Part shown: positions 9,082 to 35,042 of the stretch, piece after piece
How positions within the stretch are numbered: the stretch's first letter is position 1
Layout of the letters: every line of letters begins with the position of its first letter
Source of the DNA: a virus
Taxonomy: Duplodnaviria; Caudoviricetes
Strand: one strand, 5' to 3'
IMG/VR virus record: IMGVR_UViG_3300001598_001791
Span: 1-64,000 of that record
DNA length: 64,000 bases
Program-made: the position numbers and the translations under genes
Notes under the pieces: generated by a model
What the model saw: the letters and a program-made list of their open reading frames with translations, nothing else
Told to the model about the DNA's origin: nothing
The model's database searches: none

Positions 9082-9083
9082 TT

Positions 9084-10520
9084 ATGAGTATTGAAAGTCA
9101 ATTAACTGCTTTACAACAAGATATTACAAATGCTAGAGCTGCTGTCACCACAAAAGGTGGCACAGTTACTAGTGGAGGTGGGTCATCTCAATTAGCGACA
9201 GATATTGCTACAATTCCAACTGGTATTACTCCGTCAGGAAATATTGAATTAACACAACAAACAGGAACTAATGTTACTAATTATGCTACTGCTTCCGTTA
9301 AGTCAGGTTCATATTCAGCATCAGGTTCTGCAGCTATTACAACAACTCCAATTGTAACACCAGCAATTAGTGGTAATATTACAGATATTACTACTACAAC
9401 AACTCCATCTGGAACGAGTGGAACAGATTATTGGTTATTAGACCCAAGTGGTACTGTTACTACTACTGGTATTGCTACAGCTACTGGAACTGCTACGGTT
9501 GGTACTGCTGGTTGGTTAGCAACAGGCTCTAAAACAGGAACTGGCACAGCTAATATTACTCCAACAGTCGCGGCTGGAACTAATAGATATTTAACAAAAT
9601 CAACAATTACAAATAATACATCAGGTGGTACATCATCGGGAACTATTAATGCTGGTAGTCAAATTAAGTTTGGTGCTGGCTATAATAAAACAGATGTATA
9701 TTATACTGCCCAAGCGGCAAGAGGAACTGATAAAGCTGCAGCTACTTATAATACATCTACTTCAGATCAAACAATTGCTGCTGGTTATTATTTAACAGGT
9801 GCTCAAACAATTAAAGCTGTTACAACATCTAATATTTCAGCTGAAAATATTAAGAGTGGTGTCGTAGTTCAAGTCGGTGATGCTAATAGTGCTGGAAGAA
9901 TTAAAAATGTTACTGGTACTTATACAGGTCCTACTCTAAGAGGTACTGCGGTTGCTAGTGATGTTGCTGCTGGTAAGACGTTCTATAATACGTCAGCTAG
10001 TACAGTTGTAACTGGTACTGCTGCTATGGCTACTGCTACTTATAGTTCTGGTAATATTACTCTTACTAATGGTTTCCCTGCAGGAATTGGATTACAATCT
10101 AAAACAGTTACACCAACAACATCTGCCCAAACAGTTACTGCTGATAGTGGATATATTGGTTTATCAAGTGTTATCGTTAATGCTGCAACTGGTGGAACTG
10201 TTATGCAATATTATCAAGGAAGTGATAATAATACTAATACAACAATGACAGCTACAACTCTTACTTTAACTGTAAACCAAACAGGTACTTATACTGTTAT
10301 TTGGGGTGCTGGATATAATAGAAATTCAGGTTCTCCACAAACACAATTATATATTGGTACTACTGCTTATGGAAGTGCTACAACATATTCAGGAAACGGA
10401 ACATCTATTAAGTTGACTGGTGTTTCATTAACTGCTGGACAAACGGTTACGGTTTATGTAAAATCAGCCTCTAGTTCATACAGGGCTTCTGTATCTAACT
10501 TATTTATTATTAAAGAATAG
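9084..10520 (+). CDS. Thr/Gly-rich fibre-like virion protein (478 aa)
   Basis: Composition; ENIKSGV and GTA.ASDV.AGKTF fibre-type motifs. Confidence 0.65.
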   Translation: MSIESQLTALQQDITNARAAVTTKGGTVTSGGGSSQLATDIATIPTGITPSGNIELTQQTGTNVTNYATASVKSGSYSASGSAAITTTPIVTPAISGNITDITTTTTPSGTSGTDYWLLDPSGTVTTTGIATATGTATVGTAGWLATGSKTGTGTANITPTVAAGTNRYLTKSTITNNTSGGTSSGTINAGSQIKFGAGYNKTDVYYTAQAARGTDKAAATYNTSTSDQTIAAGYYLTGAQTIKAVTTSNISAENIKSGVVVQVGDANSAGRIKNVTGTYTGPTLRGTAVASDVAAGKTFYNTSASTVVTGTAAMATATYSSGNITLTNGFPAGIGLQSKTVTPTTSAQTVTADSGYIGLSSVIVNAATGGTVMQYYQGSDNNTNTTMTATTLTLTVNQTGTYTVIWGAGYNRNSGSPQTQLYIGTTAYGSATTYSGNGTSIKLTGVSLTAGQTVTVYVKSASSSYRASVSNLFIIKE

Positions 10521-17965: not shown

Positions 17966-18880
17966 ATGAATACAGAGTTATTTAGTAATTTATCAGATCA
18001 AGAAAAAGAATATGTACTTAAAATTTTAGATGGTATTTCAAAAAATGATAACTCAGAATTAACTAAACTGTTATATGAAGATTATAGAGAAATACCTGTA
18101 GACATAAATACTTTTTTACATGATCCTTATTATTTAGGAAGAGGTTTGATTGATGGTGAGGGGAGATTTACTTTATTTCCTTATTGAGAGGAATTATTAA
18201 AGAAAATATACCCAGACCCACTGAAACCTGCTATATGTAATACATTAGCTCTTACAGGAGCTATTGGTATTGGTAAATCAACTGAAGCAGTAATCATAGG
18301 TATTTATGAATTATATAGAATGATGTGTTTAAGAGACCCATCAGTTTATTATGGTATCATGAGTACTGATACAATTTCATTTGCAGTTATTAATATTACT
18401 TTAGAGGCATCTAAGGGTGTTGCTTGAGATAAATTTCAAAATCTGATTCAATCTTCAGGATGGTTTATGAATCATGGAAAAATGGCCGGTATAAATAAAC
18501 CTGAATGAGTTCCTGATACTCAATATAAAATTGATTTAATTTGTGGATCTCAGCCAAGACATTTTATTGGTAAAGCATTATATTGGTGTTTAGATGGTGA
18601 TACAGTTATAGCTACAACAGATGGCAATAAGAAGTTAAGTGAACTAACTAATAAAATAATACAAGTGTTTACTATTAACGAAAAAGGTGAAGTTGTTGTA
18701 AGTGAAGAGTGCACAGTAAAACCTACAGCTGTAGAAGATATAGAATATCAAATAGAACTAGATGATGGTTCAGTAATAAAATGTACACCTACACATAAAT
18801 TTATGCTAAAAGATGGTTCATATAAGGAAGCACAATTTTTAACTGAAGAAGATGAATTATATGATGTGGAGGTTTCTTAA
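17966..18880 (+). CDS. terL: terminase large subunit N-terminal part fused to N-intein (Int-N, 97 aa from Cys at 18587)
   Basis: Walker A TGAIGIGKS; three in-frame TGA (18185, 18425, 18506); then intein block A CLDGDTVIAT and block B CTPTHKFM; TAA stop. Confidence 0.9.
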
Positions 18881-19567
18881 ATGAAAGTTATTAAAGAACA
18901 AAAGCATTTTGGCTATATTTATAAACTTACAATGATTCCCACAGGTAAAATATACATAGGTAAAAGAGAAAAAGATAAAATTGATGTAGGTTATTATGGG
19001 TCAGGCAGAGATTGAAAGATTGATCTTAAAAAATATGGTAAAGAAAATGTTAAAGTTGAAATACTTGATTGAGCAGATTCAAGAGATGAATTAAGAGAAA
19101 AAGAAGTTTATTGAATTAAGGAGTATAATTCTCAAAATAAAGAAATTGGTTACAATGTTCATAAAGGTGGTGCTGGTGGAAATTCATTAGGTGATACTGA
19201 AGCTTGAGCAGAATTGCATAGAGGTGAGAAAAATGGTAGATATCATATGCCTGTCAGTCAAGAGACAAGAGATAAAATTGGTGTTGCAAACTCAGGTAAA
19301 ATAAGATCACAAGAAACAAAAGACAAAATTTCAGCTTCAACAAAAGGTGTTCCAAAACCAAATGGATTTGGTGATAAAATAAGTGCTGCAAGAAAAGGTG
19401 TTCCAAACACATGAGCATGAAAATCAGTTCAATGTATAGAAACAGGAAAGATATATAAAACAGTTCATGATGCATCAATTGATACAGGTGCAACAAATAT
19501 CGCAAGATCTTGCAAATTAGGTGTGACATCAGGTGGTTATCATTGGAGATATGTAAATGAAAATTAA
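18881..19567 (+). CDS. free-standing GIY-YIG homing endonuclease with NUMOD3/NUMOD1-like repeats (228 aa, code 4)
   Basis: GYIYKL...KIYIG, YYGSG, E..WIKEY and GYN motifs; SQETRDKI repeats; six in-frame TGA. Confidence 0.85.
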
Positions 19568-21071
19568 ATCAATTAGAAGAACTAAATTATCTTCTTTAAA
19601 ACAATACTATGATGTCATTAATGCTAATCCATATAATAATTTTTTAATTAAAACAAATAAAAGTTATGTTTGTTCTCATAATTGCTTTATGGATGAAGTG
19701 AGTTTTCAACCAAATCAAGACATTAATCGTCAGAAGGAGAAGGCTACAGAATTAGTATCTTCTGCAACTGCACGTATGCAATCACGTTTCATGAGAAATG
19801 ATGTTAATCCTACAATTCTTGTAATGGCATCATCAAAAAGAACTGAACAATCATTCTTAGAAACATGGATTGAAAACAAAAAGAAAAATGATAGTAAAAC
19901 TACTATTGTTATAGATGAACCTCAATGGATTATTAGAGCAGATAAACAGTCTGAAAGAACATTTAAAGTAGCAGTTGGTAATAAATTTCTTGTATCAGAA
20001 GTACTACCCCTAGACTTAACAGAAGATGAAATTGGCTATTATAGAGAAAAGGGGTATAAAATTATCGATGTTCCAATAGGATACTATGAAACATTTATAG
20101 ATAATATTGATATTGCTCTTACTGATGTTGCCGGTATTTCAACTACTAGCATCAGTGCCTATATTTCTGGGGCAAGGCTATCACAAACAAAAACTGAGAA
20201 AATTGAGAATCCTTTTGTTAAAGATATTATTGAAGTCGGTGATGGTAAAGATGACTTACAACAATATTCCGATTTCTTTAATTTAGATAAAGTAGACCCT
20301 AAGATGAAATCAAAACCCTTATTTATACATCTTGATATGTCTCTTACTGAAGATAAGACTGGACTGTGTGGTGTGTGAATAAAAGGTAAAAAACCACCAC
20401 AAGATGGTGTTCCAGAGAGCCGTGAATTATATTATCAACTGTCATTTGTTGTGTCCATAAAGGCACCAAAAGGGCATCAGGTTTCATTTGAGAAGACAAG
20501 AAATTTTATTTATTGGCTAAAAAAACAAGGTTTCAACATAAAGGGGATAACCTCAGATACTTATGCTAGGTCAGGTATAGAACAGGATCTAATTTCAAAA
20601 GGATACAATTATGGGATACTGTCAGTTGATAGGACTAAAGATCGTATCTGCGAACCATATGAATACCTTAAAAACACTATATATGAGCAAAGAATACTAT
20701 TACCTAGATATGGAGTTAATTTACTGACTGAAGAATTGGTTGGCCTGAAGCGAGATAATAATTCAGGAAAAATAGACCATGACCCGTCTGGAATAAATAG
20801 TAAAGATAGTTCTGACGCCTTGTGTGGAGCTTTATGGACTGCATCCCAACATGCTGAAGAGTTTGCATATGACTTCGGTGAAAATGCCCAAGCTTTATTA
20901 GATTTTAATAATGATCTTGGAATAACTGAATATAATGAAGAATTTGAAGAATCTATAAAATTAGCTAAAAAGAAATCTTTATATACACAGAATGAAGATT
21001 CTAATTATCTTGATTTTGGGTATGGTATCCCGATGGAATTACCCTTTGAAGATGGAATAATGCTATTTTAG
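19557..21071 (+). CDS. terL: C-intein (42 aa) fused to terminase large subunit C-terminal part (code 4)
   Basis: MKIKSIRR...YYDV...SHN followed by C-FMDE (Walker B); nuclease motif IHLDMS; read-through of TGA at 20376; SKDSSDA motif near the C-terminus. Confidence 0.9.
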
Positions 21072-21098: not shown

Positions 21099-23018
21099 AT
21101 GACACCAAATGAAATAAATGTAGAAAAGGAAGAAATCTTTCAAAACATAAATTATAAAAATAGAGTAATATCAGAGCCAAGCCCTAGTAAAATACCTGAT
21201 GTAGATACCAGGGGTAGTTTTTATGGATATCTCATGGACTCAGCTGAAACATCATCTCTTGATATTAATACTTTGAGCTCATTTACTTCAATTTCTAGAT
21301 CTCGTGATAGTGTTTATACACTATTAGATGTTATGGCAGAAGACCCTATGATATCATCGGCTATTAAAATTTATGCAGCAGATGTATGTGAACCAAATGA
21401 TCAAGGCCAAATAGTCTGGTGTAATTGTGATGATCCAAGAATCTTAAATGAAGTAAATAATTTATTAGATTCGTTAAATGTTAATAAAAATTCTGTAGAT
21501 TGGGTTACTTCATTAATTAAATATGGTGATATGTATTTGAGATTGTATAGACAGTCAGATTTTAGATTATTTGATCGATACATGGATGAATTCAGGAGAA
21601 ACCAAGATGACTATAAGAAAAAGAAACTTGATGAGAATTACATCCCACCTGAAAGAAATACTTTAGAAGAAGATCTCAAACTATTTGATTATTCTAAAAA
21701 TGACAGATATGCTGAGTATATGGAGTTGGTAAAAAATCCAGCACAAGTTTTTGATCTACAAAAATACGGCAAGTCATATGGTTACATTAAGACCACTACG
21801 GCACCAACTAACATCAGAAATGACTCTTTACAACCTAGATTAGAAACAAGATGGAATTATAGATATGATCAAGATGATGTAGAAATATATGAAGCAACAG
21901 AATTTGTTCATGCTTGTTTGACTGATAATTCATGTAGAACTGATGAGGAAATTTCATTAACAACTGGATCAAGTGGTACTACTGAAATTACTTTTAATGT
22001 AAGACGTGGACAATCTTTGTTATATAACTCTTTCAAAATTTGGCGCGAACTTACTTTATTAGAAAACGCTGTTTTATTAAATAGAATCACCCAATCATCA
22101 CTTATTAGATGTGTAAACGTTGAAGTACCTGATATGGATCAAAGTGAAGCTAAAAACATTTTAAGGAGAGTCAAGGGTTTATTTGAGCAAAAGTCGGCCT
22201 TGAATCTTGGAAATAATATGCAAGATTATACAAATGCTGGCCCTATTCAAAATACAATTTATATTCCTACTCACAATGGAATTGGAAATATTTCTGTTAC
22301 AAGTGTTGGCGGTGATGTTCAAGTAGGAGATCTTACTGATTTAGATTATTGGAAAAATAAATTATCTGGATCATTAGGTATCCCGAAGCAATACTTAGGT
22401 GATACTTCCGATTCAACTGGTTTCAATGGTGGTAGTTCTTTAAGTATTATTTCAAGTAGATATGCCAAGACGGTAAAGTCAATTCAAAATATCTATTTAC
22501 AATCTATTACAGATGCAGTTAATCTTATTTTATTAGATAAGGGATTGCGTAATTATATAAATAAATTTACATTAAGAATGCAAGAACCTACTACACAAGA
22601 AGAAAAGGATAGAAGAGATAATCTTTCAACTCAATTAAATTCTATTAGAGAAATAATGGGGTTAGTTGAAGACATTGAAAATAGAAAGATTAAGCTAGAA
22701 ATTCTTAAGTCATTGTTATCTAGTGCCTTAAACAATGAAGATGTTGTACAATTAATTCAAGAAGAGATTGACTCAATTTCTGAAACTACTAATTCTACTA
22801 GAGATGAATTAGGCGACAGTGACTTTGATGATATTAATTTTGAACCTAGTGAATCTGAAGGACCATCTCATATGGGAAATAGTGAACCTTCATCTCCTGT
22901 ATCTTCTGCAGGTGAAAATGAAACACCTATTGAAACGGCAGAAGCCCCAGCTGCCGGCGGAGATGATTTCTTAGAAACTTTTGAAGAAATGGGAGTTTCT
23001 TATAGAAACGTCTTATAG
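21099..23018 (+). CDS. portal protein (T4 gp20-like)
   Basis: Follows terminase; LRLY, RITQSS.IR, DYWKNKL..SLGIP and S.RYAK.V..IQ motifs. Confidence 0.8.
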   Translation: MTPNEINVEKEEIFQNINYKNRVISEPSPSKIPDVDTRGSFYGYLMDSAETSSLDINTLSSFTSISRSRDSVYTLLDVMAEDPMISSAIKIYAADVCEPNDQGQIVWCNCDDPRILNEVNNLLDSLNVNKNSVDWVTSLIKYGDMYLRLYRQSDFRLFDRYMDEFRRNQDDYKKKKLDENYIPPERNTLEEDLKLFDYSKNDRYAEYMELVKNPAQVFDLQKYGKSYGYIKTTTAPTNIRNDSLQPRLETRWNYRYDQDDVEIYEATEFVHACLTDNSCRTDEEISLTTGSSGTTEITFNVRRGQSLLYNSFKIWRELTLLENAVLLNRITQSSLIRCVNVEVPDMDQSEAKNILRRVKGLFEQKSALNLGNNMQDYTNAGPIQNTIYIPTHNGIGNISVTSVGGDVQVGDLTDLDYWKNKLSGSLGIPKQYLGDTSDSTGFNGGSSLSIISSRYAKTVKSIQNIYLQSITDAVNLILLDKGLRNYINKFTLRMQEPTTQEEKDRRDNLSTQLNSIREIMGLVEDIENRKIKLEILKSLLSSALNNEDVVQLIQEEIDSISETTNSTRDELGDSDFDDINFEPSESEGPSHMGNSEPSSPVSSAGENETPIETAEAPAAGGDDFLETFEEMGVSYRNVL

Positions 23019-23593: not shown

Positions 23594-25852
23594 ATGTTAA
23601 AAAAGTTAGATGAAAATATGTCTCTGAGATTTAGAAATCTAGACCCTAAATATAAAAAAGAAAAAAATGTTTTAGGTAGATTCTACGGTGAGGTTGCTAC
23701 TTTTGGTGGTCAAACTAGAAACGGGAGACTCTATTCTGAAAAGTTATGGGAAAAACTATTTGAATCTGATCTTATTAAAGAGAGATTTGCTAATGGTGGA
23801 ATTTTTGGTGAATTGTGTCATCCTGACAGAGAAGAAGTTGATTTTGAAAAAGTTGCAATTGTAATGCCAGAACCACCAGTTAAAGATAAAGACGGATCAC
23901 TTATCGGATATGTAGATATTTTAGATACTCCATGTGGCCGTATTGCTTATCAGTTAGCAAAATATGGATATAAGTTTGGTATTAGTTCAAGAGGTACTGG
24001 TGACTTAGTTGATGGCCCTAATGGCGAAGAAGTTGATCCTGATACATATTCATTAACCGCCTTTGACCTTGTAGAAATGCCAGGTGTATATGGTGCGAGA
24101 ATGTCTTTTGCCGAATCATTAGATACTAAGAAATATAATAAAACATTAAAACAAAGATTATCTGAAGAATTAGAAAATTCAGAAGGAAGAGATAAAGAAA
24201 TTATGGAAGAGTCTTTAAAAGAATTAAATATCATCTTAAATGAAAATACTAATGAAGACTTCAGCCCTTATGGTTATTCTAAAGCTATTAAAGCTATTTC
24301 TGATGGTATTGAAAATGATACAGATTTAGATGGTTTACAAAAATACTTACAAAATATTGTTGGATTCTGTAAGTCTATTGCTGATGATTATGATCTGGCT
24401 ATAGAAGGTATCAGCGAAGAACTTGTAGAGAAACAATGCCAAGAATCAATTGGAGATGAAATTAAATATATTACAAAAGAAGAAGCTGATAAAGTAATTT
24501 CTGAAAGAAATCCAAAAGGTTTGTATATTATTAATGAACCAGAAAATAATAAAACAGTTGCTATTGATAATTCTACTGGTGATGCTTGGACTGAAGAATT
24601 TGATTCTGAAGAGGAAGCTATTAGATGGTTAAATGGTGAATTTGAAATGGCTGATAGAGTTAATGAAAAATTCTATTTATCACAAGAACCAGAAAAAGTT
24701 GAAAAAGCTAAAGAAGCTTTACAAGCAAATGTTGATTGTAAAGAGTTAGTTTCTGAATTATTAAGAGTTGCTGATAATGATACTATTGCTAAATTATGTA
24801 GACAATTTGGTGTTGAATCAAAAGAATTTGGTTTTAATATCTTAACTAAAGATGAAGTTAAACAAAAATATGGCACAGAAGATATTTCTGAGTTAGTAGA
24901 TGAATCATTAGAAAATGGAAAAACTGATTCAAGAGAAGCTGATGTTTTAGATAAGATATTTACATATTTAAGAGACGAATACACGGATGAAGAATTCGTT
25001 AAATTAGCTAAACAAAAATTTGGTATGACAGATGAAGAATTAGCTAATTTCTGTGGTTTAAATGAATCTATCAGCGAAAGCTGTGGAGATATAGAAGTTG
25101 TTAAAGAAAATGAAGAAGCTGACTGTGTCAGAGATGAATTATTAGTTAACGAACTTCAACAAACTTTATTGAAAAATAAAGAGTTAGAAAAAGATAATTT
25201 GGAACTTCAAGAAAAATTATCGGTTTGCAGTGCAAAAGAAATTAGTTTAGAAGAAGAGCTAAAGAAGTATAAAACTTCTACAGCTTCATTAAGTGAAACT
25301 GCTAAAAAGGTTAAAGATCTGAAAGAAGAAAATAGCCGTTTAACAGAAGAACTTAGACAAAATGAAAAATTACTTATTTCTGACAAAAGAAGATTCGAAA
25401 GATTAGGAGAACAAAGAAATAGCTATTCAAAGAAACTTGAAAAATCTATTGATGAGGTCAACAGTCTTAAGGATCAAGTAGTATCTCTTAAAGAGAATTT
25501 AGAGAAATCCTCTAAGAGAACTGAGGACTATGAATTATCTATTAAGAAATACCAAAAAGCTTTAAAAGAATCAAAAGATTTATATATTAGAGCTAAGGCT
25601 GACTCATACAACCTATCAGTTGATGAAGTTAAGTCAAATTTGAGTGAATCATTCAAATTAAAAGAAGTTGATTCAATTTGTGAAGATCTATATAATCAAA
25701 AGAAGAATTTAAATAAACTACCATTCAGAATCACTGAAGATGTTAAGATAAATGCTAAATCATCTAAAAATGAATATCTTGGTAGAGACACTTTCTATGA
25801 TGATGATAATATTGATTCTTTACTTAAGATGGCCAACTTATTTGAAAAATAG
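23594..25852 (+). CDS. prohead protease (T4 gp21-like) fused to a coiled-coil scaffold
   Basis: NGRLY, GELCHP, ILDTPCG, GISSRG.G and FDLV..PG motifs; long acidic coiled-coil C-terminus; directly upstream of the capsid gene. Confidence 0.85.
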   Translation: MLKKLDENMSLRFRNLDPKYKKEKNVLGRFYGEVATFGGQTRNGRLYSEKLWEKLFESDLIKERFANGGIFGELCHPDREEVDFEKVAIVMPEPPVKDKDGSLIGYVDILDTPCGRIAYQLAKYGYKFGISSRGTGDLVDGPNGEEVDPDTYSLTAFDLVEMPGVYGARMSFAESLDTKKYNKTLKQRLSEELENSEGRDKEIMEESLKELNIILNENTNEDFSPYGYSKAIKAISDGIENDTDLDGLQKYLQNIVGFCKSIADDYDLAIEGISEELVEKQCQESIGDEIKYITKEEADKVISERNPKGLYIINEPENNKTVAIDNSTGDAWTEEFDSEEEAIRWLNGEFEMADRVNEKFYLSQEPEKVEKAKEALQANVDCKELVSELLRVADNDTIAKLCRQFGVESKEFGFNILTKDEVKQKYGTEDISELVDESLENGKTDSREADVLDKIFTYLRDEYTDEEFVKLAKQKFGMTDEELANFCGLNESISESCGDIEVVKENEEADCVRDELLVNELQQTLLKNKELEKDNLELQEKLSVCSAKEISLEEELKKYKTSTASLSETAKKVKDLKEENSRLTEELRQNEKLLISDKRRFERLGEQRNSYSKKLEKSIDEVNSLKDQVVSLKENLEKSSKRTEDYELSIKKYQKALKESKDLYIRAKADSYNLSVDEVKSNLSESFKLKEVDSICEDLYNQKKNLNKLPFRITEDVKINAKSSKNEYLGRDTFYDDDNIDSLLKMANLFEK

Positions 25853-25886: not shown

Positions 25887-28800
25887 ATGGCAAAAAACTT
25901 ATTAGAAGACTACAAAGGTAGACTTTCTGTTAGATTTTAAGCAGCGTAGTGAAGTAATTTATTATGATGTTTCTTATTGTACCTAAATACAATACTTTAA
26001 TCTACTGTCTCTAATAAGAGAAACAAACCTGGTGAATTCATGGAAAATCTAAAACTTAACGGGACCTCCCAACCCGGTTTTAGACAATCATGAGCCAAGC
26101 CCATTCGGGAAGGTGCAACGACTATCGAAATGGTAGTTTAGGAGAAAAACCTAAATAAGAACAAAGTAGAGTACATCTAATTAGGTGGAAGTACCAGGGT
26201 CCTTATAAAGGATAAAACAACATAAGGATATGATATAGTCTGATCTCCGTGGTGACATGGAGTTAACACAAATGTTCTGAAAAATTCTATGGCGACCGTA
26301 ATGAAGGCGCTAAGATGGGAAACGCTAAAAAACTTTTAACTGCTCAATGTTTAGACAATGTAGCTAAATATTTAAATGAGGCATTCACAATGACTGCAGG
26401 AACACAAAGAGGCGATTTAGGCGCTTTCAAAGTTTTCTGTATGGACATTACTACATTAACAATGCCAAACCTTATTGTTAATGACTTATTTATGGTTCAA
26501 CCAATGAGTTCATTCCAAGGTTATTAAAAAGTTATAGTAACCTAGCTGCTATAATAAAAAGAAGGCAGCTACAATAAACCTCATAAATTCATGGAAACTC
26601 CTTACCTTTCAGGACAATCATGAGCCAAGCTTTCAATTTCTCAGTTGAAAGAAGGTGCAACGACTATCGAAATGATGGCTAGTAATAGCTAGAACAAAGT
26701 AGAGTACAATTCAAATGAATTGGAAAGATGAGGCTGCCAGAAATGGTAGATAATATAGTCTAAACTATATGGTAACATATAGAAAATATTTTGAGAAATT
26801 ATTAATAAATGGCTACTGAGAAATAAAAAGCTTAAAATAATTTCAATGATTTATTTGTAATACAATTGTTAACTTACATGGAATATGCTTTAGCACCAGC
26901 TAAGGGTGGTGTTGCTGAAGGTACTGTTGTTCAAAATCCATTCCAATGGGCACCAATGACAGAAGCTAGAATGCAATACACTGGCGAAGCTGTTGTTGAA
27001 AAGATTGATGCTACTGGTGGTATTACCTTCGCTTGGGGACCAGTTGTTTATGGTAAAGCTGAAGACATCAGAGTTGAAGTAAACGGCGCTTACGTTCCAG
27101 TTCCAGCTGACAGACTAGTTAAAGATGCTAATGGTAAAGTTATTGGTATCGCTGCTGGTTATATGGCTGAAGGTACAAGAGTTGCTTATAGATATGACAA
27201 CCAATTAATCCCACAAGAAAAACTTCCTGGCATCAAAGGCCAAATGAAGGGTATCGCATTAGTTGCTAAAGCAAGAAGAATTGGTATTGAATATTCACAA
27301 TTCGCGGCTTAACTCAAGATACAAATCTTGAAAAGGTCCCTTACACAGTAATGTGTATTGAATAACCTATTTAATTGCTGGGAAACCTTTATAGCTAACT
27401 AAACTACAACGCAATTTGAAAAGATAATCGTGAAAGTTTTAAAATTAGTTAGATTAGGCAATCAGCAGCGAAGTTCCTTTAAAATGGAAAACGTTCAACG
27501 ACTATCACCGGCGGGTGAGTAGATATTATGTAATATCAAAATAATAGGTATTTTTAAATCAAAAAAATAAATTATGGAAAAGAAAAAGAGAATTCCTTGA
27601 AACAAGGGTCTTACAAAAGAAACAGATCTAAGGGTTGCTAAGGGAGCTGAAAATACTAAAAACACAGTATTATCTAGATACGGTGTTAGTAATATATTTC
27701 AGTCAAAAGAAGTACTTGATAAACTTTCTGCAGATAGACATTCAGGTGAACTTGCAAGAAGAGCAATGGACACAAAGAAGTTAAGATATGGCGATCCGAA
27801 TTATAATAATATTGAAAAGAATCATCAGACTAAATTAGATAGATATGGTGATCCAAACTATAATAATCAAGATAAAAACTATGAAACAAGAAAAATAAAC
27901 GGCACATTTAATACATCTAAACCAGAAGAAGAATTAAAACAAGAACTAGTAAATAAATACGGTGAGGAAGACGTAGAAGTTGAATATAGAGATCCTAGAT
28001 ACCATAATAAAGAAGGGTATAAATATAAATGTGATTTCTATGTTAAATCTGAGGATTTATTTATTGAACTTAATTACTGGCAAGGACACGGACCACATCC
28101 CTTTGATGAAAATAATGAAGAAGATTTGAAATTATTGGTTAAGTGAGAAGATAAGGCTAATTCAGGATTACCTCAATACAAAAATTATATTTATGTATGA
28201 ACTGTTGATGATCCTAATAAATTAAAATGCGCAAAGGAAAATAATCTTAATTATCTGATGATTTATAGGAATGGTTTAAAAATAAAGATATAGTCTCCTC
28301 TCTTACGAAAGTAAGAGGCAATAATTATTGCATTATAGAGTAACGATCTATAATAAAGAAAAGGTTTCAAGCTAAGCAAGATTACGGCATGGACTTCGAA
28401 GCTACTATCGCTCAACAAGCCCAAGCTGAATTAGAGTATGAAATTGACTCTGAAGCGGTATTCATGATCAAGAATGCTGCTGATGCATCAGCTCCAGTTG
28501 TTACTTGGGTTGATGAAGAATTGGATTAAGAAAAAAAAGTTTACATTTTCTTACAATTATTGTTACATTTATTATAAAGATAATGGAAATGATATAAGAA
28601 GATGTACTACATATTTTACATATTTATTTAATAATAAAGAACATACTTATACTCCTGATTTTATTATAGGAGATGAATATGCTGATGTTAAAGGTACACA
28701 TTTTATTAAAGATAACAGAATGATTAACCCGTATGATCGATCTTTAGATGATCAATATGAAGCAAAACATCAATGTATAATTAAAAATAATGTAAGACTT

Positions 28801-31800
28801 ATTTTAGAAGAAGAAATAAATAATTGTAAATTATTTGTAGACCAAGAATATGGTTGTAATTATATAAACCAATTTGAGGTGACTAAAGGTCCCTTAATAT
28901 AGAAATATATTTAGAAAACGATGTGAATTTCTGGGACATCTTATATACTTGCATACATATATAAGACAATCAGAAGCCAAGCAAATAGAAATATTTGAAG
29001 GTTCAACGACTATCGAAAAGTTAGTTTAAGAGAAATACTGAAATGAGAACTTAGTAGAGTACACTTTAAGTAAAGTGGAAGCGCATCGAAACTTACAGAG
29101 GTTCAAACAATGTAAGTTTATGATATAGTCTGATCTTATAGGTAACTATAAGAAATTAGATGGAAACGATCTAATTGTAACATAAATGACAATCAGCTAT
29201 TCAATGAAGGCTAAACCTATTTTGGTCTTGGCGTAAGTAATTACGTAAAAATATAAACCGCATTAACTCAGGGGAACTCCCACAGGGAAAATCCTGATCC
29301 GAGCCTCTACTGTAAGAGGAAGGTGCAACGACTATCGAAAAGGTCATTAATAAGAAATATATTAATGAGAACTTAGTAGAGTACATCTCAAAAGAGATGG
29401 AAGTGTGCGGCAACCTAGAGAGGATAAAACAATCTAGGCTGAAGATATAGTCTGAACTCTATAGCAATATAGAGAGAATTAAATTTAGTTTAAATATGAA
29501 CAATATAGAAGAAAAACAAAAAAATCACGCTGGAGGTACTAAAGGTTTAAAGTACTACAATGAGTGTAATTACAACTGAACTCATGGAAATACTGAACTC
29601 ATGGAAATCATGCATATGATTAAAATAATGAAGACGATCTTGAGAAGGTTGTTGAATGAGAAGATAAAGCCAATGAAGGAAAAAATTATTATAAGAATGC
29701 AATCTATACATGAACAATTTTGGATGTTCGTAAACAAAAGACTGCTAAAGATAATAATTTAAACTATATTGTTATATATAAATAATTGTTTAATTCGTAA
29801 CATAATTGGAAGGCTTTGCTAGAGCTATCGAAAGAGCTAAAGCTCATGTTTATAAAGCAACTGGCAGATTTATGCCTAACTGGATTAAAAATCTTGAATT
29901 TTGTTGCTAAATTTATTGTATAATATAATAAATAAGGCAATTTGGCATGAATGAACAAATAATAAAATTTTACAAAACACATACTGGTGCAAAAACTAGA
30001 AAACAATTTAGTTAATATATGGTAAAAATTATTTAAAGTCATTCAAAATTTAAAGATATGTCCCTTATTAAAGAAATTTAATATAGAAAACCACGAGAAT
30101 TCATGGAAACGCCTATTCACATTGGAGAGTGATTAGGTCAATCATGAGCCAAGCCCATTCGGGAAGGTGCAACGACTATCGAAATGATATGCATATACTT
30201 AATATGCAGAGTAACAGAGTAGAGTAAGACTTAAGAAATTCTGAAGTACGTGGGATCTAGAAATAAAGTAATCTAGATTATGATATAGTCTGAACTTATA
30301 AGTAATTATAAGAAAATAAACGGATTCGGTTTATTTGTAACACAATTGGTTAGTTTCTCCAGATATGATGACTATCCTTCCATTCGTTCCTGGTTTCGTT
30401 CATGCGAACAATGCTATTGCTAACGGACCATATGTTGCTGGAAATGTTGCTGGAATGAAAGTTATCGTATCACCAGCTTTAGGTAACAAAGTTTGTTACT
30501 TAGGTGTTTTGGGTGCAGATGGCAAGACTGCTGTTGGTGTATATGCTCCATTAAAAAATTATGCTTTCGCATAATGATTACAGTGGCCTTAAACAGAGAT
30601 GTTTAAGTGAAAACAAATTTAATTGCTGGAAAGTCCTTAGAGCTCTTTTGGCTACAACGAAAGAAGTAATTCTAATCGTGAAAGCTTAAAAACAAAAGAG
30701 ATTGGATAATCAGCAGCTAAGTTACTTATTTATGAAAACATATTTATTTAGGTATATTGGTAGGACAGTGGGTTGCAAACCATTTTCTATTACTCCTAAT
30801 AATAGAATTACTACCTATATATAAATTTAATTTTAGAGGATTATATTTTGTATGGATATGTTTATTTAACTGAAAATTTAATAAGTAAAAAGTTCAACGA
30901 CTAAGGGGTAGCACCCTGTAATAATCAAATGATTATGAAAGAGTTTGCATCTTATCCTAAATAAGATGATAATATAGTCTCTTCTCTATAGAAATATAGA
31001 GCTACAAATTGTAGTAGTTAAAGTAATGAATTAACTAAAAGATAAAAGATATGCCAATCGTCCCAACTCAATTATTAGGCTTTGCTGATGGCACTATGAG
31101 CCAAGGTTTGACAATCGCGACATGGCAGTTCGCGTAAGACCGTTTACTTAGCAATAAGTAAAATAAATCACATATTTAATTGCTGGAAAATCGTAAAGCT
31201 CACAAGCCTGAATGGTTACGAAAGTAGAAACAAGTTGTGAGATATCTATATGGTGTAAACCTAAGTAGATGTAAATCGATAATCAGCTTCCAAGCTTCTG
31301 TTTAGAAGAAGGATCAACGACTATCCCCTAGTGGGAGTAGAGAAGAAGTCTTCTCGAAAAGGTATGCATCTTAAAAAGATGATGATATAGTCTATACTTT
31401 ATTCGAAAGGTAAAGGAGAAATTATTTTGGGAAAAAGAACAAATTATATTAACCCTGATACAAAAGAAGTTATTTGATGTATTAGAGGTAATCAACCAGA
31501 AAACTGAGTTGAAATAAAACATTTTAAAAAGGTAGATGAGTTAAAGAATACTATTTCTAAAGAAGAATTATTTATTTATTATATTATAGAAAATAATAAT
31601 TTTATAACTACTGCTAAATATTTCAATATAAATCCTGCAAATGTATTACATGATTTACTAAAATATTACGGTATACATAAAGATAGTGTTTCTTCTAGTA
31701 AAAATAATAAATATAAAAGATCAAAAGAAGAATCCATTTTAGTTGGACAGAAATCTTCTTTAACACAAAAAGAAAAATGGAAAAATAAAAGCATTGAGGA

Positions 31801-32561
31801 AAAAGAAGAATATAAGGAAAAACAAAAAATAGCTCATTCAACTGATACTTTCAGAAAAAAAATAAGTGATATAAATAGAGAATATAGAAAAGAACTAAAA
31901 GATACTGATCCTGAATTAGATTTTGAATTAAATAGGCGTAGGTCTATTTCATGTAAAAAAACTTGGTCTAATAAAGATTTAATAGACAAAAGGAATGAAA
32001 CAGCTAAAAAGAACAGATTAGAAAGAAAAAATCAAATTTGTAGAACTAAGGCTGAACAATCAGTCTATAATGTACTGATTAATTTATTTCCAGATCTTAT
32101 TTATGATAAAATAATTGATGAAAGATATCCTTATCATATTGATTTTTATATTCCAAGTGAAGATCTATTTATAGAACTAAACGCACATCCTTCTCACGGT
32201 AAACATCCTTTTACTGGTGATCTGAATGAATGCTATAATATCACTGGTAATTGGCTAGATACTTATATTAGACGAGACGTAGAAAAAAGAAATTGTGCTA
32301 TTTCAAATAATCTTAATTATTTAGTTATTTATCCTCAATCATCTTTAAGAGAAAACATCTCATTTAATCCCGAAAAATATAAAGACTTAATAAAAATTAT
32401 TTATAATTCCCAGAATAAATCTCACTAATGATTAACGACCATTAGTAAATATATTAGTTAGCACACTTTATGATATGCGAATCTTAAATGAAAAATTATT
32501 AGCAAAGATCAACGTTGTTGAAGGCGATGAAGCTGCATTGGTAAAAGTTTTAGAAGCTTAA
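25887..32561 (+). CDS. major capsid protein (T4 gp23-like), 454 aa, spliced: join(25887..25930,26275..26524,26869..27309,28365..28526,29189..29212,29809..29885,30349..30551,31049..31108,32458..32561)
   Basis: Exons sum to 1365 nt with no internal stop; junctions give VQPMSSFQGYLTY, YSQFAAFQAKQDYG, ELDTISYSMKAEGFARA, MPNWMLVSPD, GVYAPYMPIVPT and SQGFSTLYD, matching gp23-type motifs. Confidence 0.9.
25931..26274 (+). other. group I intron 1 of the capsid gene (344 nt, no ORF)
   Basis: Exon ends in U, intron ends in G; P1 CUGU/GCAG; P3 CCUGGU/ACCAGG; P7 GACUA...AUAGUC. Confidence 0.85.
26525..26868 (+). other. group I intron 2 (344 nt, no ORF)
   Basis: P1 GGUUAU/GUAACC with U.G at the splice site; P3 CCUCAU/AUGAGG; P7; terminal G. 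Confidence 0.9.
27310..28364 (+). other. group I intron 3 with endonuclease ORF in P8
   Basis: AUUGCUGGGAAA, AAUCAGCAG, UUCAACGACUA and AAGAUAUAGUC core elements; P3 ACCUAUU/AAUAGGU; terminal G. Confidence 0.85.
27574..28293 (+). CDS. intron-encoded putative PD-(D/E)XK (Vsr/DUF559-like) homing endonuclease (239 aa, code 4)
   Basis: P(TGA)NKGLTKETD motif; RYGDPNYNN repeats; YKCDFY...LFIELN; the TAG stop lies inside the P7 3' strand. Confidence 0.75.
28527..29188 (+). other. group I intron 4 with ORF remnant in the P1 loop
   Basis: Exon GGAU pairs with GUCC about 365 nt downstream; P3 CGAUG/CAUCG; P7; ends GUAACAUAAAUG. Confidence 0.85.
28528..28902 (+). pseudogene. start-less TnsA/PD-(D/E)XK-like endonuclease fragment
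   Basis: YTPDFII..EYADVKG motif; no in-frame ATG upstream of the nuclease motif within the intron. Confidence 0.5.
29213..29808 (+). other. group I intron 5 with decayed endonuclease in P9
   Basis: P1 AAGGCU/GGUCUU; P3 CCGCAU/GUGCGG; P7; ends GUAACAUAAUUG. Confidence 0.85.
29496..29785 (+). pseudogene. degenerate homing endonuclease, paralogue of the intron-3 ORF
   Basis: C-terminal WEDKANEGKNYYKNAIYTWT...KDNNLNYIVIY matches intron-3 ORF WEDKANSGLPQYKNYIYVWT...KENNLNYLMIY; most of the N-terminal part is missing; 17-nt tandem duplication at 29575-29608. Confidence 0.75.
29886..30348 (+). other. group I intron 6
   Basis: Exon GGAU pairs with GUCC near 30060; P3 CCACG/CGUGG; P7; ends GUAACACAAUUG; splicing creates the AUG codon of MPNWMLV. 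Confidence 0.85.
30552..31048 (+). other. group I intron 7 with GIY-YIG remnant
   Basis: P1 CCAU/GUGG; AUUGCUGGAAA, AAUCAGCAG, UUCAACGACUA and AUAUAGUC cores; RBS plus LYGYVYLTENLISKK at 30848-30892. Confidence 0.85.
31109..32457 (+). other. group I intron 8 with endonuclease ORF in P9
   Basis: P1 GGUU/GACC; core elements at 31167-31392; terminal G at 32457 restores SQGFSTLYD. Confidence 0.85.
31427..32428 (+). CDS. intron-encoded putative PD-(D/E)XK homing endonuclease (333 aa, code 4)
   Basis: AAGGAG RBS plus TTG start; two TGA; RYPYHIDFYIPSEDLFIELN..HG.HPF motif shared with the intron-3 ORF. Confidence 0.7.
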
Positions 32562-33576: not shown

Positions 33577-34335
33577 ATGTTTATTAAGAGATCTTTAAAT
33601 GAGGCATCCCGTGGTCAATTGATAAGCAAATCAAAGAATGCTGATGTAGTAAAATCTTATGGGACTACTAGATATGGACGAAAAGACTATCAACACGTTG
33701 AAGATACTACTGATAACCTAAATAGAGTTGATTTTAATGCGTTGTTTAAAGCTGATCTGTTATCTCTCATAATCCCTGTTCAGGGTGAAACTTCTGAGTA
33801 TAATGTAGAAATACTTTTTGAGGGTGTTTGTTCCAATATAAAAGATCAAATAAAAAATAACAACTATATTCGAGAATATAAATGTATATATAGAGCTCTA
33901 ATTGATGCGATAAATAAATATGATTTATATGTTAGTTGTGACTGCAAAGATTTTAAATTTAGACAGGCCTATTATGCATCAAAAGGGAGATACAATTCAG
34001 GTCAAACACAAATTACTCCTTCGAGGATAACCAACCCAAATGATACTAAAGGTGCAGGGTGTAAACATATCATGAAGGTTATTTCTGACCTAGATTGGTT
34101 GCTTAATTTATCTACTTGCATAAATAATTATATTACTTATATAGAAGAAAATTATAATGATAAATATAGAGATATTATTTTTCCAGCTATTTATGGAATT
34201 GATTATGATTCTGCTATAAATAGAGGGATTATCGACATTGATGACAATGAGATAGATAATATCAATATTGAAGAAGAGCCTATAGAAGATAGTTCTACTG
34301 AGCCTAGTGAAGAAAGCCAAGAGGAGGAATTATAA
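33577..34335 (+). CDS. SWIM-type Zn-finger protein
   Basis: CDCKDFKFR...GCKHI motif; downstream of the late motif at 33546. Confidence 0.6.
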   Translation: MFIKRSLNEASRGQLISKSKNADVVKSYGTTRYGRKDYQHVEDTTDNLNRVDFNALFKADLLSLIIPVQGETSEYNVEILFEGVCSNIKDQIKNNNYIREYKCIYRALIDAINKYDLYVSCDCKDFKFRQAYYASKGRYNSGQTQITPSRITNPNDTKGAGCKHIMKVISDLDWLLNLSTCINNYITYIEENYNDKYRDIIFPAIYGIDYDSAINRGIIDIDDNEIDNINIEEEPIEDSSTEPSEESQEEEL

Positions 34336-35042
34336 TGGAAAAAAGTGAATATATAGATCAAATTAAACTTCAATTATTTGGTGGTATTTTAGAATCTGAG
34401 ATAGACGATAATACTTTTAGTAAAATAATGGATATGTCTCTAAGTGAATTGAATAGATATTACAATGGAACGGCTTTAATTGAAGTTCCTGCCAGTAGTT
34501 GTATTGACCTAGCTTCACATCCTGAGATCAGCACTGTTGTTGCTATATATAGACCAAACCCATCTGGATTCTCTACTACTAGTAATTATTCAGGTGACCC
34601 AGTATACATGTCTCAGTTACAGATGTATAACTTTGGATCTAGTTATTATTCTAATAGTTGGATCTATAACTATTTAACATACTCACTCAATCAAAAAATA
34701 CGGAATACTATGTCTACTGATCTTGATTTTAAAGAAGATAAGAAGGATAAAAAATTATATATTAGTTTTAGTAATGGAACTCCATCTAAAATAGCGATTG
34801 AGTACGTACCTCAATTACGTGATTGTTCAGATGTATTTGAAGATTATTGGCAAGATATTCTTCTTAGACTAGCTCTTGCTCATACAAAGGTAGCTTTAGG
34901 TAGAATTAGAACTAGATTTACTCAAAGTGATGCCGTGTGGTCAGGTGATGGTGCTACTATCTTGGCAGAAGGAAGTACTGAGTTAAAAGAACTCAGAGAA
35001 TTACTTAGATCCCATACTGATTTAATTTACCCAATAGACTAA
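34335..35042 (+). CDS. probable neck/head-completion protein (gp13-like)
   Basis: Position after capsid gene; LA.AHTK..LG.IR..F and LNG/DG..I..EG..E..EL pattern. Confidence 0.55.
   Translation: MEKSEYIDQIKLQLFGGILESEIDDNTFSKIMDMSLSELNRYYNGTALIEVPASSCIDLASHPEISTVVAIYRPNPSGFSTTSNYSGDPVYMSQLQMYNFGSSYYSNSWIYNYLTYSLNQKIRNTMSTDLDFKEDKKDKKLYISFSNGTPSKIAIEYVPQLRDCSDVFEDYWQDILLRLALAHTKVALGRIRTRFTQSDAVWSGDGATILAEGSTELKELRELLRSHTDLIYPID

Follow-up and report, generated by a model that had tools for sequence, protein, structure and literature searches.

How does a phage make its major capsid protein from a gene that lies in nine pieces, and what are the eight stretches that keep these pieces apart? The question arises at positions 25887-32561 of the window, the whole stretch of viral DNA that was analysed (64,000 nucleotides). 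We consider it very probable, on the evidence set out below, that a gp23-family major capsid gene lies here, that its eight interruptions are mobile group I introns (type IA), and that TGA encodes tryptophan in this phage. The record to which the window belongs is 78 kb long and is estimated to be about 47% complete; the full phage genome is probably about 165 kb. The split gene occupies the usual position of a capsid gene in the head module, after the genes for the portal and the prohead protease (Table 1). No tRNA, and hence no suppressor tRNA, was found in the window.

Table 1. Predicted features of the split capsid gene and its neighbours (positions in the window)
Feature	Position	Strand	Details
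Portal	21099-23018		phrog_213
Prohead protease (S77) fused to scaffold-like tail	23594..25852	+	752 aa; PF03420, phrog_207
Exon 1	25887..25930	+	44 nt; start codon; aa 1-15 partial
Intron 1	25931..26274	+	344 nt; no ORF; family A; RF00028 78.4 bits
Guide, intron 1	25941/25946	+	GCAG or GUAG, equally good candidates
Exon 2	26275..26524	+	250 nt
Intron 2	26525..26868	+	344 nt; no ORF; family A; RF00028 62.9 bits
Guide, intron 2	26537	+	GUAACCU; 7-bp P1
Exon 3	26869..27309	+	441 nt
Intron 3	27310..28364	+	1055 nt; family B; ORF in P8 loop splits core
Guide, intron 3	27335	+	GGUC
Intron 3 ORF (P0006)	27574..28293	+	239 aa; three TGA=Trp; homing-endonuclease-like
Exon 4	28365..28526	+	162 nt
Intron 4 ORF	28474..28902	+	142 aa; ATG inside exon 4, other frame; start uncertain
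Intron 4	28527..29188	+	662 nt; family A; core 28871-29152; RF00028 71.1 bits
Guide, intron 4	28889	+	GUCC; ORF between 5' splice site and guide
Exon 5	29189..29212	+	24-nt micro-exon, TISYSMKA
Intron 5	29213..29808	+	596 nt; family A; RF00028 70.7 bits
Guide, intron 5	29224	+	GGUCUU; 6-bp P1
Intron 5 endonuclease remnant	29570..29782	+	P0006-type, after P9; in-frame TAA
Exon 6	29809..29885	+	77 nt
Intron 6	29886..30348	+	463 nt; family A; core 30040-30312; RF00028 67.6 bits
Guide, intron 6	30060	+	GUCC; 175 nt past 5' splice site
Exon 7	30349..30551	+	203 nt
Intron 7	30552..31048	+	497 nt; no ORF; family B; 136-nt insertion, P6 region
Guide, intron 7	30583	+	GUGG
Exon 8	31049..31108	+	60 nt
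Intron 8	31109..32457	+	1349 nt; family B; core 31126-31415; RF00028 56.8-57.6 bits
Guide, intron 8	31138	+	GACC
Intron 8 ORF (P0007)	31427..32428	+	333 aa; two TGA=Trp; located after P9
Exon 9	32458..32561	+	104 nt incl. TAA stop
Head-tail adaptor	34335-35042		

Results

Exon map and joined protein

The nine exon lengths proposed in the earlier note, and their in-frame joining into a protein of 454 amino acids, were reproduced exactly. The joined exons comprise 1365 nt, end with a TAA codon and have no internal stop. Two junction peptides that had been named as markers of splicing, FQGYLTYMEY and MPNWMLVSPD, are both present in the joined protein as given; the other predicted junction peptides are QFAAFQAK, DEELDTISYSMKAEGF, VYAPYMPIV and MSQGFSTLY.

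The proposed gp23-like identity was upheld by the comparison with homologues. A profile built from five PF07068-carrying proteins matches the joined protein in one stretch, from profile position 2 to 463 of 468, with an E value of 1e-212. The joined protein is 60-63% identical to the intron-free PF07068 proteins P0001, P0003 and P0005 over residues 4-452, and the end-to-end alignment with intron-free gp23-family homologues, on which the earlier reading had staked itself, is gapless at all eight junctions. The neighbourhoods of seven junctions are 78-100% identical to the homologues, against 64% overall, and that of the eighth junction is 67% identical. When searched as separate exons rather than as the joined protein, the pieces match Pfam PF07068 with scores of 15.4 and 13.7 bits (cut-off 24.4) at the colinear profile positions 7-32 and 249-321, the latter being the part of the Gp23 profile matched by exon 7. 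Exon 2 matches the major head protein family phrog_138 (E 2.4e-7), and exon 3 encodes the capsid protein's variable insertion domain.

It had been predicted that standard annotation would miss such a gene, and P0009 (144 aa), the gene publicly called at exon 3, is indeed without a Pfam domain. Gene callers give only fragments that belong to no family, and capsid-based detection and classification of phages therefore misses or mis-scores such genomes. Among the matches of the exon-3 search there was no full-length protein near-identical to the joined sequence, and the records thus contain no spliced transcript in assembled form.

Intron cores

By sequence, each of the eight interruptions is assigned to the group I introns, type IA, a level at which IA1, IA2 and IA3 are taken together. 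Six of them (introns 1, 2, 4, 5, 6 and 8) reach the curated cut-off of 50 bits for Rfam RF00028. Intron 3 falls below it, with two matches of 39.3 bits (27364-27516) and 28.3 bits (28232-28317) that flank its 720-nt ORF, as does intron 7, which matches the model over its full length with 30.4 bits and a 136-nt insertion; the E values of these sub-threshold matches are 1.8e-7, 3.6e-4 and 8.2e-5. The P3/P4, P7 and P7' words are preserved in both introns, and both align with intron 8. The Infernal models thus bear out the group I assignment made earlier in six introns, which reach the cut-off; the other two score below it, with cores retained.

The core words CAACGACTA and ATATAGTCT are present in one copy in each of the eight introns. 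CAACGACTA is absent elsewhere in the 78-kb record, and the shorter ATATAGTC has one further copy in the whole record. By sequence, the introns form two families, A (introns 1, 2, 4, 5 and 6) and B (introns 3, 7 and 8). Rfam alignments place an insert of about 35-70 nt between P7 and P3', the position of P7.1/P7.2 in IA introns, in the six introns whose alignment shows this part. When the 62 nt after ACGACUA were folded, introns 2, 3 and 8 each gave a clean pair of hairpins and the rest less tidy structures, and in intron 1 additional hairpins precede the core. Group II introns, inteins and translational bypass were rejected as explanations of the gaps, every one of which combines in-frame stops with a group I core. 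Outside the capsid gene, no further group I intron was detected in the 78-kb record.

Splice sites, guides and early stops

The pattern described earlier, a U at each 5' splice site paired to a guide G and a G at the end of each intron, holds at all eight junctions, with the pairing itself being predicted. Among the junction shifts that leave the mRNA the same, only T...G is available; it is the sole possibility in four introns, and one of two in each of the remaining four. A predicted P1 helix, formed by a guide of 4-7 bp that starts with G and lies upstream of P3, is found in all eight introns, and in six of them the guide G is located 37-41 nt before the P3 strand. The guide changes with each different 5' exon, as is evident from introns 3 to 8 in Table 1. 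In several introns P1 is only 4 bp long.

An in-frame TAA is located 0-26 nt inside each of the eight introns. Spare copies of the downstream exon, which relatives do have, were not found inside the introns of this gene, and the peptides read through after introns 7 and 8 bear no relation to the exons that follow. Because of these early stops and the lack of spare exon copies, a capsid subunit is predicted to need the removal of all eight introns, in accord with what had been proposed. The agreement of exon map, homology, splice-site pattern and intron scores is much greater than chance would give.

Reading frames within the introns

Introns 3, 4 and 8 carry putative endonuclease genes with TGA as a Trp codon, and intron 5 holds a decayed one. 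Neither P0006 nor P0007 had a significant match of its own in Pfam, PHROG or PDB sequence searches. Relatives carry DUF7487 or NUMOD3: among the 38 aligned, 21 match PF24308 and 6 match NUMOD3. D154, D161, E165, H172 and K216 are invariant in the P0006 family alignment, and the atlas neighbours of the group include DUF559/Vsr-type clusters. The C-terminal domain of P0007 is 41% identical to that of P0006, and the remnant in intron 5 is 55% identical to P0006 residues 164-232. The intron 4 ORF has a weak match to Phage_endo_I (E 0.049) and atlas neighbours of the TnsA-like/DUF7487 kind; it may encode a small nuclease-like protein, which we take as a lead only. A PDB profile match between an intron ORF and a phycobilisome linker was discarded as the match of a short repeated motif.

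Capsid genes of relatives

Related contigs from gut and rumen phages have from one to at least eight introns in the capsid gene, and most relatives have none. High counts are seen in L144, with at least eight RF00028 matches in its capsid gene, and in L145, with five to six. Homologues of intron 7 are found at the same site in L081, L138, L141 and L144, and homologous introns are present at the residue-245 and residue-401 sites in independently assembled relatives. A scan of 12 relatives' loci at the Rfam gathering threshold gave no match. The capsid genes of L010, L012 and L014 are each split once, and the L010 and L012 contigs (re-fetched as L089 and L103) contain the 22-nt core word of family A; the scan therefore missed at least these two. 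In a tblastn search, exon 3 matched none of the cultured-phage records, and no close relatives of exon 3 were found in viral contigs. The nearest cultured capsid proteins, from Bacillus, Listeria and Streptococcus phages, are 27-28% identical to the homologue P0001.

Discussion

The type of these eight introns is nothing unusual; what is extreme is their number. The introns of the T4 genes td, nrdB and nrdD are of the IA2 type and are found one per gene in genes of nucleotide metabolism. They are characterized by P7.1/P7.2, a U-G pair at the 5' splice site, a terminal G, an early in-frame stop and conserved insertion sites, and their endonucleases are GIY-YIG or HNH proteins encoded by ORFs in peripheral loops. 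The introns described here share with them the IA architecture, the predicted U-G pair, the terminal G, the early stop, the peripheral endonuclease-like ORFs and the conserved sites; in contrast to T4, there are eight in one gene and their putative endonucleases are related to DUF7487. [quoted passage not shown] The cox1 introns are mostly of the IB and ID types with LAGLIDADG ORFs, and cox1 is an organelle gene, not a structural gene of a virus. A capsid gene intron is also a feature of Cluster J mycobacteriophages, which are unrelated to this phage, as are their hosts, and which reportedly have a single intron per gene. Splicing of introns in the capsid and tail genes of Cluster J is reported in PMC3706429. 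Among viral group I introns, IA2 is the commonest subtype (PMC11835236).

Eight introns exceed the published maximum that we found, which is three or four per phage gene. Twort orf142 contains three introns (Landthaler & Shub 1999, PMC22036), and the polymerase and terminase genes of the Bastillevirinae have at most three each (PMC11878797). In these phages, the interrupted genes have no more than three introns each and are not capsid genes, whereas here eight interrupt the major capsid gene of a phage with TGA as a tryptophan codon. Another parallel is the capsid gene of the crAss-like Zeta-group phage OLRF01000054, which consists of five fragments separated by four gaps, three of them with intron-type domains (Yutin et al. 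2021, PMC7886860). The Zeta lineage also has altered stop codons and many introns per genome (PMC7886860). Both are uncultured gut phages in which the capsid gene is fragmented by group I introns. However, the Zeta capsid protein has the crAss-type fold, while the present one is of the gp23 type, in nine exons, with covariance-model core matches in all eight gaps (two below the cut-off). The Jug jumbo gut phages resemble this phage in having many group I introns in essential genes: they have about 18.5 introns per 360-400-kb genome and a terL gene in two to three fragments, and metatranscriptome reads confirmed splicing for 37 of 76 introns (PMC12880540). Their introns are spread over the genome, whereas all those detected in the 78 kb are packed into one gene. 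The earlier claim that eight introns go beyond any known case therefore stands against the published three or four, but does not set this gene apart from L144.

This gene would bring the documented number of introns in one phage gene to eight, up from three or four. The gene concerned is the virion gene with the heaviest expression, where any inefficiency of splicing would be multiplied eight times. The relatives, with none to at least eight introns at partly shared sites, provide a natural series on how introns spread between sites and genomes. The series also bears on the co-folding of ribozymes across exons as short as 24 nt, and on whether such introns are a selfish load or a competitive weapon.

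A metagenome assembly invites the question of whether the contig is a composite of a population, in which no strain has the full set of introns and the assembler chose the version with an intron at every site. The presence of introns does vary widely among relatives, and exons 2, 3, 4 and 7 (162-441 nt) are estimated to be probably longer than typical assembly k-mers. We nevertheless regard a composite as very unlikely, as exons 5, 6 and 8 (24, 77 and 60 nt) are so short that fragments very probably link introns 4-5-6 and 7-8, and as independent assemblies are intron-rich as well, with at least eight RF00028 matches in L144 and five to six in L145. The chance is slighter still that the split gene is a decaying copy and that a working capsid gene is located in the unsampled half of the genome. 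The incompleteness of the record (about 47% complete) leaves room for such a gene, but the exons have kept 60-63% identity over their full length without a frameshift or stop, the gene lies at its usual location after the portal and protease genes, the eight ribozyme cores are intact, and no second capsid-like sequence was found in the 78-kb record.

It is also conceivable, if unlikely, that the introns are real but that at least one of them depends on help from a protein or an adjacent ribozyme, or splices so poorly that capsid production is limited or timed by it. Introns 3 and 7, which score below the cut-off, and those with a 4-bp P1 would be the likeliest candidates; P1 helices are short, and eight sequential reactions would multiply any inefficiency. 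On the other hand, every intron has all of the conserved core segments, and four other phages have retained a homologue of intron 7 at the corresponding site.

We thus prefer the reading of a capsid gene with eight self-splicing introns. In this case the head-gene transcript would fold into eight ribozymes, in each of which the guide would base-pair with the final 4-7 nt of the exon before it, with a U-G pair where the RNA is cut. There a free guanosine would attack, the terminal G of the intron would then occupy the same pocket, and the exons would be ligated. Ribosomes that enter an unspliced intron would halt at the TAA 0-26 nt inside it, and the 454-aa subunit would be made only from RNA that is free of all eight introns. 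The putative intron endonucleases probably drive the copying of these introns to co-infecting relatives whose capsid genes lack them; such copying would explain why the most conserved stretches are the ones interrupted, and why distant relatives have homologous introns at matching sites.

A wider reading, which we consider doubtful, is that, in this lineage of gut and rumen phages with a recoded stop codon, the capsid gene serves as an arena for IA introns, which would increase in number and pass from site to site by guide-directed reverse splicing into GGNU sites and by endonuclease homing. The stack of eight ribozymes and three endonucleases might then be kept as a weapon against intron-free co-infecting relatives, or eight-fold splicing might gate capsid production on GTP or on the late phase of infection. 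The use of an intron endonuclease as a weapon against a co-infecting phage is described in one case, phage PhiPA3 (PMC11620839). In the present gene, five of the eight insertion sites are GGNU sites (P about 7e-6).

The split capsid gene

Between 25.8 and 32.6 kb, the table-11 ORFs are short pieces that resemble parts of a capsid protein. Placed according to the exon lengths proposed in the earlier note, the nine exons join in frame, as that note had claimed, into 1365 nt encoding 454 aa, with a TAA at the end and no internal stop. Exon 3 as a query retrieved uninterrupted proteins of 470-479 aa carrying the Pfam Gp23 domain (PF07068). The joined protein aligns with these intron-free homologues end to end (60-63% identity over residues 4-452, gapless at all eight junctions), and a profile from five PF07068 homologues matches it in one stretch (E 1e-212, positions 2-463 of 468), which bears out the proposed gp23-like identity. 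Single exons gave colinear matches, below cut-offs, to phrog_138 (a major-head family) and to the Gp23 profile. The 12 residues surrounding a junction are 78-100% identical to homologues in seven cases out of eight, against 64% overall, the exception being the intron 1 junction (67%). Conserved stretches of this kind are the usual location of group I introns and of the endonucleases that go with them. The observation is confirmed and its interpretation supported, and we consider a capsid gene split by eight group I introns highly probable.

Exons, introns and intron-encoded ORFs of the split capsid gene (all on the + strand; scores are for the Rfam group I intron model RF00028)
Feature	Window position	Size	Match or remark
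Exon 1	25887-25930	44 nt	
I1	25931-26274		78.4 bits
Exon 2	26275-26524	250 nt	
I2	26525-26868		62.9 bits
Exon 3	26869-27309	441 nt	
I3	27310-28364		39.3 (E 1.8e-7) and 28.3 bits (E 3.6e-4), pieces flanking a 720-nt ORF
P0006 (intron 3 ORF)	27574-28293	239 aa	three TGA, read as Trp
Exon 4	28365-28526	162 nt	
I4	28527-29188		71.1 bits
Exon 5	29189-29212	24 nt	
I5	29213-29808		70.7 bits
Exon 6	29809-29885	77 nt	
I6	29886-30348		67.6 bits
Exon 7	30349-30551	203 nt	
I7	30552-31048		30.4 bits (E 8.2e-5), matching the model over its full length, 136-nt insertion
Exon 8	31049-31108	60 nt	
I8	31109-32457		56.8-57.6 bits, from a more permissive E-value search
P0007 (intron 8 ORF)	31427-32428	333 aa	two TGA, read as Trp
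Exon 9	32458-32561	104 nt	

The window belongs to a 78,431-bp IMG/VR virus record, estimated to be 47% complete, in which no second capsid-like stretch, and hence no second intact capsid gene, was found. Genes for the portal (21099-23018) and for a fusion of protease and scaffold (23594-25852) lie upstream of the split gene, and a head-tail adaptor gene lies downstream. An eight-intron gene could also be the product of a composite assembly, for which the longer exons leave room. Because exons 5, 6 and 8 are short, direct linkage of introns 4-5-6 and of introns 7-8 by sequenced fragments is very probable.

The fusion consists of a prohead protease domain (Peptidase_S77, residues 41-146) and a 600-residue acidic, coiled-coil-like tail, which probably serves as scaffold. 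Upstream, the terminase region (17966-21071) is broken: a weak TerL match (17966-18877) comes first, next a gene for a GIY-YIG homing endonuclease (18881-19564, phrog_314, E 6e-42), and then an ORF of 504 aa without a PHROG match. A sub-threshold Rfam match to the histone 3' stem-loop at 56032-56080 (26.6 bits, cut-off 34) is most likely due to chance.

Ribozymes and splice sites

The eight gaps have the features of group I introns, as had been proposed. Six exceed the RF00028 cut-off of 50 bits; I3 and I7 fall below it, and the P7 words are present in both. The 5' strand of P7, CAACGACUA, and its 3' strand, AUAUAGUCU, occur once in each of the eight introns, and CAACGACTA has exactly eight occurrences in the 78-kb record, all inside these introns. 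A search with a permissive threshold found no further group I intron elsewhere in the record. In the Rfam alignments an insert lies between the P7 strand and P3', the position of P7.1/P7.2 in subgroup IA; in introns 2, 3 and 8 it folds cleanly into two hairpins, in the others less tidily. The capsid introns themselves are predicted to be ordinary IA ribozymes, and IA2 is reported to be the commonest subtype of viral group I introns (PMC11835236). Introns 1, 2, 4, 5 and 6 form family A, with pairwise identities of 56-63% and a common 3' tail, GUAACA(C/U)AA(A/U)UG; introns 3, 7 and 8 form family B by sequence.

The claim that every 5' splice site is a U paired to a G of an intron guide, and that every intron ends in G, holds at all eight junctions, the pairing being predicted. 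The joined sequence is fixed by the homologues, and U...G is the only legal choice at every junction among the shifts that yield it. Upstream of P3, each intron carries a guide that starts with G and is complementary to the last 4-7 exon bases; in six of eight this G lies 37-41 nt before the P3 strand. The guides differ as the exons differ (GGUC in I3, GUCC in I4 and I6, GGUCUU in I5, GUGG in I7, GACC in I8), and such covariation, with the position constant, speaks for the predicted P1 helices. Intron 2 has a predicted 7-bp helix with its guide 49 nt before P3; in intron 1, extra hairpins separate the core from two 4-bp candidates that lie further upstream. The distance from splice site to guide is 363 nt in intron 4 and 175 nt in intron 6, which places an ORF or its remnant inside the P1 loop.

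Read from the upstream exon, an in-frame TAA occurs 0-26 nt inside every intron. Early stops of this kind in T4 td are believed to prevent ribosomes from entering the ribozyme core. Unlike in some relatives, none of the eight introns contains a copy of the downstream exon. RNA keeping any intron therefore yields a truncated protein, in agreement with the view that all eight must be removed before a capsid subunit can be made. Splicing by the eight ribozymes, like its efficiency, is a prediction.

GGNU precedes five of the eight insertion sites but occurs at only 4% of U positions in coding sequence (P about 7e-6); the positions given for this site-motif observation are 25930, 27309, 28526, 29212, 29885 and 31108. 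The intron 2 site is preceded by GGUUAU; introns 4 and 6 have the same guide, GUCC, and the same exon end, UGGAU. The GGNU excess could reflect guide-directed reverse splicing and possible spread between sites, or it could mean no more than that P1 needs G-C pairs when the genome is AT-rich.

Intron-encoded proteins and genetic code

With TGA taken as Trp across the window, table-4 ORFs fill the stretches of the + strand gene map left empty under table 11 (e.g., 17.4-19.6 kb and 55.8-57.6 kb), and an IP-TGA-NKG motif becomes IPWNKG. The capsid exons contain four TGG and no TGA, and no tRNA gene was found in the window.

P0006 and P0007 have no direct match in Pfam or PHROGs, and no solved structure for their family was found by sequence. 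The two proteins share 41% identity in the C-terminal domain (E 8e-15), and intron 5 holds a decayed copy with an in-frame TAA (55% identity to P0006 residues 164-232). P0006 has more than 500 relatives in a large, mostly unannotated viral family; among 38 aligned sequences, 21 match DUF7487 and six match NUMOD3, and D154, D161, E165, H172 and K216 (P0006 numbering) are invariant. Because of these relatives, and of language-model neighbours that include DUF559/Vsr-type clusters, we read both proteins as putative, not proven, homing endonucleases. The intron 4 ORF, of uncertain start, is weakly similar to small PD-(D/E)xK-type nucleases.

Comparison with known phage introns and with relatives

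The eight-intron capsid gene is an extreme case among known phage group I introns. Three introns are reported for Twort orf142 (PMC22036), and up to three for polymerase or terminase genes of Bastillevirinae (PMC11878797). Compared with the nine exons here, one crAss-like Zeta capsid gene lies in five fragments, with up to 14 introns per genome (PMC7886860). Jug phages carry about 18.5 introns per genome, with terL in 2-3 pieces, and RNA reads confirm splicing for about half (PMC12880540); their introns are spread through the genome, whereas all those detected in the 78-kb record lie in one gene. Intron splicing in capsid and tail genes is also reported for cluster J mycobacteriophages (PMC3706429). 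What is unusual here is the number of introns, their concentration in one essential late gene, a 24-nt exon between two introns, and the clade-wide pattern.

The assertion that eight exceeds every known case stands for the literature, since no phage gene with eight introns was found in searchable published papers, but not for relatives: locus L144 (G001:C40:1-12923, a 12.9-kb contig) also has eight RF00028 matches above cut-off, all inside the capsid gene. Since profile positions 42-82 and 99-134 of its protein were not located, its intron number may exceed eight. Related capsid genes are mostly uninterrupted. Among 82 loci surveyed by tblastn segments (80 taken from viral contigs; the other two, L081 and L082, were reached via fragment-length homologues of exon 3), only L010, L011, L012, L014 and L081 gave more than one segment. 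L010-L012, which look like one phage, and L014 have a single gap each near residues 62-70, and L082 (1.8 kb) holds one exon with an intron on both sides. Four interruptions were inferred in L081; three cores match RF00028, one above cut-off, and the fourth is recognised solely by similarity to intron 7. Other contigs, binned with gut and rumen MAGs, have at least two (L134), two (L140), three (L141) or 5-6 introns (L142/L145).

L081, L138, L141 and L144 have homologues of I7 at residue 401, the I7 site, or next to it, and L144 has a homologue of I3 at residue 245. For several introns of the split gene, the closer match is an intron in another phage, in some cases at a different site, and not a neighbour in the gene; I4 shares 74% identity with L138 and L081 introns and 68% with I6. 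These recurrent sites and similarities would fit introns that were acquired horizontally, again and again, by homing and that now and then moved to a new site. At the I7-type site of L081 (4446-5832), L138 (7069-8289) and L144 (9998-10510), an in-frame continuation of the capsid C-terminus directly follows the 5' splice site, and then come the intron and a repeat of that C-terminal exon; the full protein could therefore be encoded by RNA with or without splicing. Intron 7 of the split gene, unlike these three, has no spare C-terminal exon.

In L081 (1579-2262), group I cores of 46 and 87 bits lie between capsid residues 79 and 80-84, and a 48-nt stretch between them, NLIAHDLVIVHP, resembles the neighbouring exon; it could represent either a micro-exon or a pseudo-exon that arose by duplication. 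The capsid exons of L145 (G002:C4:33000-46000, at 7577-9603) contain in-frame stops unread by table 4 (TAA or TAG), at least two of three aligning with Gln in homologues (D-*-LAEKA, S-*-GWSTLY), a sign of possible TAG=Gln recoding in a lineage that is sister to the TGA=Trp phage.
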